Positions 55,498 through 56,043 of a stretch of 64,000 bases of DNA are shown in pieces (the stretch's first letter is position 1; every line of letters begins with the position of its first letter). A program made the position numbers and the translations under genes. The notes beneath the pieces were generated by a model. That model saw only the letters and a program-made list of their open reading frames with translations, made no database searches and had not been told where the DNA came from. Source of the DNA: a phage; assembly GCA_014686905.1 (NCBI GenBank), contig GCA_014686905.1_4093.1; one strand, written 5' to 3'.

Positions 55498-56043
55498 ATG
55501 AAACATACTATCGAACAACAAGTGTTTTCACTTCAACAGTTCAGCGTTGTGAAAGCCACATATAAAGATTCAGTTTATTACTTAGCAGGGAGTAATGACA
55601 TTACTCCTTATGTAACAAAACTACAATCTGAACATAGTAAAGTTGATAATAAAGTACTTAAAGCTGGACTAGAATTATTTTTAAAAGAACACCCTGAAAA
55701 AAATCAGTTGGATGTTCCTAAGTTTCACTTTATTTTGTTAGATGATCCTACCACACATGCAGAGTATGTTGAGTGTGTTTGTAGTGAAGTATTCCACATG
55801 GACCAAGACCAAGCATGGGAGGTTATTGAAGCATTAAACTCTTCAGTACATTCATATCATGTAGGTACATTTACTGATGAAATGTGTATTACATTCGCTG
55901 CAATGATTGACAATGGTAACGAACAACTACGTCAAAATTTAAAATATGACAAAGTTCCATGCCAAGCAAATGGTAAAGACTATGATTCAGCACTAGAAGT
56001 TCTAGAAACACTGATTCGTAAAGATTACCCAGATGATATTTAA
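55498..56043 (+). CDS. ClpS-like adaptor domain protein with N-terminal extension
   Basis: [25 protein letters not shown]...[13 protein letters not shown] resembles the E. coli ClpS core ([24 protein letters not shown]...VHYQGKAICGVFTAEV), including the DD pair and the His. Confidence 0.6.

Follow-up and report, generated by a model that had tools for sequence, protein, structure and literature searches.

We show here that gp164c of a jumbo phage contains, in residues 75 to 154, a genuine ClpS core, whose similarity to ClpS proteins is well beyond chance, and that this core is embedded between two conserved modules of its own. On balance, we lean toward regarding gp164c as an early ClpS-derived adaptor or modulator, which would dock on the N-domain of ClpA and choose its targets in a non-canonical manner. 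The gene lies in a stretch of phage DNA of 64,000 nucleotides (GenBank assembly GCA_014686905.1, contig GCA_014686905.1_4093.1), here termed the window, which is 99.9% identical to Escherichia phage vB_EcoM_phAPEC6 (MK817115.1, minus strand), an Asteriusvirus of ~352 kb belonging to the Rak2-like jumbo phages. The gene and the parts of its product are placed in the window as follows.

55486..55490, plus strand: Shine-Dalgarno sequence AAGGA of the ClpS-like gene, read from the sequence, 7 nt before the ATG.
55498..56043, plus strand: ClpS-like open reading frame, complete, with ATG start, 181 amino acids plus stop, corresponding to phAPEC6 gp164c.
55498..55689, plus strand: lineage-specific N-terminal domain, residues 1-64, predicted to have three beta strands and two helices, with the conserved motif SVYY(L/I)AG..DIT.Y.
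55690..55719, plus strand: linker or junction, residues 65-74, with P66 and V73 invariant and P74 nearly so, placed by alignment and hhalign register.
55720..55959, plus strand: ClpS core, residues 75-154, assigned by homology and fold.
55960..56040, plus strand: C-terminal part, residues 155-181, a variable loop followed by helix 162-176 and the acidic, proline-containing tail LExLIR.DyPxD(I/L).

The ClpS homology of this family is not new, having been both annotated and published. In the phAPEC6 record gp164c is labeled "hypothetical protein"; the 100% identical gp48 of phage 121Q is annotated as "protease adapter protein ClpS," ClpS-type names have been given to relatives in GAP32 (GAP32_314), Munch (Munch_345), Sharanji, XaC1, and others, and PHROG 15940 matches gp164c end to end (2.1e-96). 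The GenBank proteins 121Q gp48, GAP32_314, and Munch_345 belong to the same family as gp164c. An 80%-identical homolog (P0004), filed at NCBI as "hypothetical protein [Escherichia coli]," most likely comes from the genome of a jumbo phage that was submitted as part of an E. coli assembly. The accession series of AMM43882.1 points to phage CBB as its probable source. Iyer et al. 2021 already noted ClpS in jumbo phages, with AMM43882.1 as an example, and the delivery of targets to host ClpAP by a phage ClpS has likewise been proposed in print (PMC7824862). Our literature search retrieved no experimental work on any phage ClpS and no published analysis of pocket substitutions, extra domains, or a pairing with phage ClpA. 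We did not find described before a pocket that departs from the canonical type, N- and C-terminal modules that are predicted to be folded and are highly conserved, an invariant glutamate in the contact to ClpA, or the explicit pairing with a phage ClpA.

An earlier note, made from the DNA alone, had proposed that residues ~70 to 150 resemble ClpS, and several independent approaches confirm this. The Pfam model of ClpS (PF02617) matches residues 74 to 144, marginally, with 24.7 bits at a gathering score of 23 (E value of 2e-5). Comparison by hhalign of a 57-sequence alignment of the gp164c family with 35 canonical ClpS sequences yielded a probability of 99.4% (E value of 1.2e-21 over 93 columns). 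A profile built from 16 family members and searched against 1.84 billion representative proteins retrieved 19 full-length relatives at E values below 1e-10, followed by a tier of ~150 proteins of ~100 amino acids that matched over the core only (E values of 1e-7 to 1e-3); the subset of the latter that was retrieved aligns as canonical ClpS. A 904-residue protein with 14 "stretches" in the representative search (P0071) was discarded as a repetitive or low-complexity artefact. Another protein, P0074 (166 amino acids), carries two tandem canonical ClpS cores (PF02617 in two stretches, 1.2e-70) and is unrelated to the phage family; this arrangement reflects either a duplication of ClpS or an error of assembly.

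Structure prediction clearly points to the same fold. The AlphaFold2 model of gp164c has a mean pLDDT of 86.8, exceeding 90 across most of residues 80 to 150, with an uncertain arrangement of the domains relative to each other (pTM of 0.59). In this model, the core comprises strands at residues 75-81, 119-126, and 149-154 and helices at residues 88-97, 103-113, and 127-144. In a Foldseek search of the PDB, ranks 1 to 36 were all occupied by ClpS structures, at target-normalised TM scores of 0.75 to 0.92, including those of E. coli, Caulobacter, Agrobacterium (ClpS2), M. smegmatis, and Arabidopsis (ClpS1). Ribosomal protein L7/L12 was considered as the closest match and rejected, since L12 appeared just at rank 38 (E value of 0.13; query-normalised TM score of 0.33). 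The Pfam scan of gp164c gave no Ribosomal_L12 match.

To compare gp164c with ClpS residue by residue, we used phmmer, a MAFFT alignment of 82 ClpS and 73 family sequences, and hhalign, which were all concordant. The E. coli ClpS reference sequence agrees with PDB chain residues 15 to 89 in the phmmer output. The first six of the following equivalences concern the N-degron pocket, and the last four concern the face that contacts ClpA.

N34 of E. coli ClpS: D82 of gp164c, pocket.
D35 of E. coli ClpS: D83 of gp164c, pocket, kept.
D36 of E. coli ClpS: P84 of gp164c, pocket.
T38 of E. coli ClpS: T86 of gp164c, pocket, kept.
M40 of E. coli ClpS: A88 of gp164c, gatekeeper.
H66 of E. coli ClpS: N114 of gp164c, pocket.
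E79 of E. coli ClpS: E128 of gp164c, ClpA contact.
E82 of E. coli ClpS: I131 of gp164c, ClpA contact, lost.
T83 of E. coli ClpS: T132 of gp164c, helix alpha3.
K84 of E. coli ClpS: F133 of gp164c, ClpA contact, lost.

Within the set that binds the alpha-amino group (N34, D35, D36, T38, and H66), just D35 and T38 are identical in gp164c. The acidic pair that the earlier note had seen as retained, by setting LLDDPTT against VNDDYTP, results from a pairing that is off by one. The two aspartates fall on ClpS positions 34 and 35, not 35 and 36; D35 is kept, but in all three alignments D36 has become Pro84 and N34 has become Asp82. The histidine assigned there to N-degron binding does not hold up either, as the position of H66 is occupied by Asn114. 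H118 and H121, which lie close by, were considered as substitutes and rejected, both being out of register (they align with K70 and I72). Members of the sister clade carry a histidine exactly at the 114-equivalent position ("IHYNG"), which fixes the register at this point. With alanine at the M40 position as well, the binding-pocket residues are largely absent from gp164c in a proper alignment, apart from D35 and T38.

The same picture emerges across the family. The NDDTH quintet is present in 57 of the 82 ClpS representatives versus a single one of the 73 family members. The gatekeeper Met40 limits the specificity of ClpS to Leu, Phe, Tyr, and Trp; its position in the family is occupied by Ala in 31/73 members and by Phe, Lys, Val, Asp, Thr, or Tyr in others. 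Hydrophobic positions that line the pocket are retained in gp164c (L80, V91, I110, L113, and L148). The set D-D-P-T-A-N is constant throughout the clade of gp164c and recurs in members that are merely 28 to 37% identical, and this conservation argues for a functional but altered site. In the GAP32/CBB-like sister clade, the pocket positions are highly variable. In P0084, which is the most distant member of the family, N-D-D-T-H is preserved, suggesting that the ancestor was probably a true recognin. In our reading, one clade probably re-specified the pocket of an ancestral recognin, and in another this pocket became relaxed.

These residues bear directly on the possibility that gp164c is a canonical N-recognin, or a mimic of one, whose pocket binds N-terminal Leu, Phe, Tyr, or Trp and either delivers the bound proteins to ClpAP or sequesters them from it. 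Such a function would be in keeping with the ClpS fold and the preserved hydrophobic lining, with the retention of T38 and D35, with the still polar residues at positions 34 and 66 (D and N), which could in principle contact an alpha-amino group, and with the NDDTH of P0084. It is at odds with the replacement of N34 by D, D36 by P, H66 by N, and M40 by A in three concordant alignments, with the near absence of the quintet from the family, with the wide variation of pocket residues in the sister clade, and with a predicted folded domain where ClpS has its delivery extension. We consider this explanation quite unlikely. To judge from its pocket residues, gp164c is unlikely to read canonical L/F/Y/W N-degrons, and the non-canonical pocket, together with the well-conserved added modules and the phage's own ClpA, both described below, makes a simple "N-end-rule mimic" unlikely. 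Target choice by the ClpS-derived adaptor or modulator that we favor would thus probably differ from canonical L/F/Y/W N-degron recognition.

The description of gp164c as a ClpS with an N-terminal extension was right in that ~73 residues have been added ahead of the core, but this part is predicted to be a folded, conserved domain and not a disordered tail of the ClpS type. Residues 6 to 64 are predicted to be folded, with pLDDT values of 80 to 90 in the full model and 75.9 when modeled alone. Searches detected no relatives of this domain. The linker that joins it to the core adjoins the position of the P24-P25 junction of ClpS, and the junction proline (P74) is kept. Both added modules are specific to this phage lineage and are better conserved than the core between them. 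Residues 6 to 45 have a mean entropy of 1.85, with Y22, Y27, Y28, and G31 invariant, and the C-terminal helix and tail (residues 162 to 181) form the least variable segment (mean entropy of 1.81; E170, L172, D176, P178, and D180 invariant), compared with 2.15 for the ClpS core. The C-terminal helix (residues 162-176) is present in the AlphaFold2 model. The strong conservation of the N-domain and the C-tail suggests a specific partner beyond ClpA.

In canonical ClpS, the disordered N-terminal extension must enter the ClpA pore for hand-off of the substrate (PMC9663308). With a predicted folded domain in place of this extension, the classical hand-off may not work, and gp164c, going by its model, probably cannot use the textbook delivery mechanism of ClpS. 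Its cargo would likely be picked by the N-terminal domain and the C-terminal helix and/or by the re-specified pocket composed of D82, D83, P84, T86, A88, and N114.

On the presumptive docking face, the contact residues of helix alpha3 have not been retained uniformly. E128, the equivalent of E79, is invariant in the MAFFT alignment (73/73 family members), and T132 is kept in 69/73, but two of the three ClpA-contact residues (E82 and K84) have been replaced. According to a passage of PMC12493166 that cites Zeth 2002, E79 of E. coli ClpS forms hydrogen bonds with E28 and T81 of ClpA, and E82 and K84 form salt bridges with R86 and E23 of ClpA. Our literature search found no mutational data on ClpS E79 (E79A). 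Most likely, the ClpS core of gp164c would still dock on the N-domain of a ClpA-type unfoldase, with the invariant alpha3 glutamate E128 mediating the contact. The docking partner might be a phage-encoded ClpA homolog, gp246c, the host ClpA, or both, with gp246c being an obvious candidate. The proposal of the earlier note that host ClpAP is redirected or blocked, in essence that of Iyer et al. 2021, may still apply, but it overlooks that this phage lineage has a full-length ClpA homolog of its own.

This homolog, which is encoded by the same phages, was identified by tblastn with E. coli ClpA.

176659-178947 of MK817115.1 (L010:2660-4948), minus strand: gp246c, ClpA homolog of 762 amino acids, outside the window and ~84 kb from the ClpS-like gene.

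Over 732 residues, gp246c is 43% identical to E. coli ClpA, and both AAA+ modules are present. The IGL tripeptide constitutes the ClpP-docking loop of ClpA. Where ClpA has SIGL, gp246c has SIGM, and the IGM in place of the IGL loop makes docking of gp246c on ClpP plausible. Clp_N is not among the Pfam top matches of gp246c; its diverged N-domain retains H-x-F-x-T-(I/V)-D-H, with E28 changed to D in 8/8 phage ClpAs compared. The numbering of the E. coli ClpA reference sequence (H22-E23...E28, T81...R86) agrees with the BLAST coordinates. The position of E23 is variable in phage ClpAs (T, S, D, E, or R), which fits the loss of K84 in the ClpS-like protein. A co-variation between residue 133 of the ClpS-like protein (K84) and position 20 of phage ClpA (E23) is suggestive, with charge lost in both; we did not use it as proof because position 23 is variable in phage ClpA and the T81/R86 contact region aligns ambiguously, with BLAST and MAFFT alignments disagreeing there.

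Phage records with the phage-type ClpA N-domain number 73, and those with the ClpS-like gene number 72; the genera are the same, and the mismatches listed between the two sets are partial records. Because all carriers belong to one collinear lineage, this co-occurrence is not independent evidence; it is co-inheritance at the level of the lineage. ClpA of the gp246c type is conserved among the Rak2-like phages. A ClpA homolog is also present in PA5oct-like Pseudomonas jumbo phages, which did not turn up among the ClpS-like matches.

A more far-reaching proposal, which we put forward tentatively as a possibility, is that of a private ClpA/ClpS-like system of Rak2-like jumbo phages, in which the ClpS scaffold has been turned from a reader of the N-end rule into a cargo-specific adaptor. 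Particular host or phage proteins, captured by the N-terminal domain and the C-terminal helix or by the D-D-P-T-A-N pocket, would be handed to phage ClpA on host ClpP and destroyed early in infection. Such a system would amount to a targeted-degradation module encoded by the phage, comparable to the way in which viruses hijack ubiquitin ligases. A reading in the opposite direction is that of a pure inhibitor or anti-adaptor, which would block host ClpA N-domains or bind host ClpS or substrates, deliver nothing, and thereby shield phage proteins from ClpAPS. An invariant docking glutamate in a protein that lacks a delivery-competent disordered extension would suit such a role, as would early expression from a host-type promoter. 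Moreover, blocking the entry of the extension into the pore inhibits ClpS-assisted degradation (PMC9663308), and anti-adaptors of ClpS are known, namely MgtC and HspQ (PMC7966870). However, the phage has kept a ClpA of its own in which the IGM loop is intact, which argues that this lineage uses ClpA-type proteolysis instead of merely suppressing it, and the conserved N-domain and C-tail suggest a specific partner in addition to ClpA. An exclusively inhibitory gp164c therefore appears unlikely to us.

The genomic context gives indications as to when gp164c, as an adaptor or modulator of ClpA, would be produced.

54908..54936, plus strand: sigma-70 promoter TTGACA-17-TATAAT, matching 12/12 consensus positions, upstream of the IF3 and ClpS-like gene pair.
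54981..55484, plus strand: gp165c, a two-domain IF3 homolog (Pfam IF3_N 5.8e-16, IF3_C 8e-14; PHROG 9787 6e-71).
56055..56112, plus strand: hairpin followed by a U-run after the gp164c stop codon (-20.6 kcal/mol, z of -5.75), which ends the transcription unit.
56115..56660, plus strand: gp163c, a KTSC-domain protein (Pfam KTSC, PF13619, 6.5e-14), with virion protein genes downstream.
9591, 17473, 32576, 41483, 54712, and 54908, plus strand: six sigma-70-like matches with at most one mismatch.

The IF3 homolog, mentioned by Iyer et al. 2021 (PMC7824862) and annotated in relatives, is separated from the ClpS-like gene by 13 nt, and the two genes are probably co-transcribed; the promoter and the terminator delimit a short IF3 plus ClpS-like unit. 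Promoter-like sequences upstream of the IF3 gene were also seen, by eye, in Munch, GAP32, and two metagenomic relatives. TTGACA-N17-TATAAT with at most one mismatch occurs 6 times in the window versus 1.64 times expected from shuffling, always on the plus strand, which suggests that this region contains many promoters dependent on host RNA polymerase. In the virion proteome of phAPEC6, determined by mass spectrometry, gp161c, gp162c, and gp167c are present, and gp163c to gp165c, including gp164c, are not listed in the table. From the sigma-70 promoter, the terminator, and the absence from the virion table, we infer that the gp164c gene is early, transcribed by the host polymerase, and non-structural. 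In our preferred scenario, gp164c would be a three-module, non-virion protein, made early from the sigma-70 promoter alongside phage IF3.

The hairpin behind gp164c is unique in the window and was found in 9/9 related loci (L001-L009), with four compensatory pairs and the invariant loop ATAAATA. Its 3' arm holds the GGAG Shine-Dalgarno sequence of the KTSC gene. The loop resembles the T4 late-promoter box TATAAATA. On the plus strand of the window, 10/16 copies of ATAAATA are intergenic, and several are located 36 to 55 nt upstream of start codons. An early terminator and a late promoter that drives the KTSC and virion genes may be united in this element. An Rfam scan of positions 54700 to 56700 returned just a sub-threshold chance match to a snoRNA. 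As for the gene behind the hairpin, gp163c has a C-terminal region of ~100 residues and was called "DnaJ-like" by the annotators of 121Q; a virion protein gene starts at 56632, within the 3' end of this gene.

The proximity to IF3 raises the question of whether the ClpS-like or L7/L12-CTD-like fold might have been recruited to translation, together with the phage IF3 and KTSC proteins, in a role unrelated to Clp. All loci examined, namely, those of 121Q, GAP32, XaC1, Munch, and five metagenomic contigs, have the gene order IF3 - ClpS-like - KTSC, in some cases with proteins just ~20 to 25% identical; in one contig (L007), the contig end cuts the upstream gene. The common promoter and terminator of the IF3 and ClpS-like genes in phAPEC6 would likewise accord with such a role, as would the weak structural match to L12. 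However, the whole region (DHFR-RNaseH-Dda...topoisomerase II) is collinear throughout the lineage, so that synteny says little about functional coupling. In two relatives, L003 (XaC1) and L006, the IF3 gene is separated from the ClpS-like gene by a GC-rich hairpin (GGGGA...TCCCC) with T-rich sequence after it, and co-transcription may thus not be universal. The structural match to L12 is far weaker than those to the 36 ClpS entries ranked above it, sequence profiles match ClpS and not Ribosomal_L12, and the ClpA-contact glutamate is invariant. We rejected an L7/L12 or translation-factor reading on the grounds of the fold ranking and the profile matches, and regard a role outside Clp proteolysis as very unlikely.

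E. coli ClpS, the N-degron adaptor of ClpAP (PF02617; PDB 1MBX, 2W9R, and 3O2B), shares with gp164c the equivalents of D35, T38, E79, and T83 and a proline at the junction before strand 1, and differs from it in the changes N34 to D, D36 to P, M40 to A, H66 to N, E82 to I, and K84 to F. In place of its disordered 25-residue extension, gp164c has a predicted folded domain of ~64 residues plus linker, and it adds a conserved C-terminal helix and tail of ~27 residues. Furthermore, the gp164c gene is not in an operon with clpA, whereas bacteria usually have a clpS-clpA operon.

Variant ClpS paralogs, such as A. tumefaciens ClpS2 (PDB 4YJM), cyanobacterial ClpS2, and Leptospira ClpS1, show that the scaffold tolerates changes in the pocket and the docking face. 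To our knowledge, these paralogs keep the N/D/T/H amine-binding residues. They are short single-domain proteins, whereas gp164c adds two modules and changes three amine-binding residues. Cyanobacterial ClpS2 also accepts Val and Ile (PMC7966870), and in Leptospira ClpS1 the position of K84 is taken by Val (PMC12493166), comparable to F133 of gp164c. In plants, ClpS1 works with an additional substrate-binding module in the binary adaptor ClpF-ClpS1 (PMC7966870). The concept, a module docking on the unfoldase N-domain plus a separate cargo module, is similar to that proposed here, with cargo binding being putative in gp164c. In the plant adaptor, however, the second module resides on a protein of its own, which has UVR and YccV domains; in gp164c it is fused in cis and of unrelated fold. 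The tethering adaptor SspB also consists of a docking module and a separate cargo-binding module. Early phage proteins that re-tune host proteolysis include T4 PinA and T7 gp4.5, which act on Lon, and lambda CIII, which acts on FtsH. These are unrelated to gp164c in sequence and fold, and they are inhibitors, not homologs of a host adaptor.

What this analysis offers for now is a corrected residue picture and a sharper testable hypothesis, namely, a phage ClpA as partner and non-canonical recognition. The role of gp164c in infection that we favor would be to act in ClpA-ClpP proteolysis, either as a private adaptor or by modulating its specificity. If it docks on ClpA and selects its cargo via the new modules, it would represent a natural re-engineering of the ClpS adaptor scaffold and, among the adaptors of Clp unfoldases, the first defined one that is encoded by a phage. 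This would be relevant to understanding the remodeling of the host proteome by jumbo phages as well as to designing synthetic degradation tags and adaptors.
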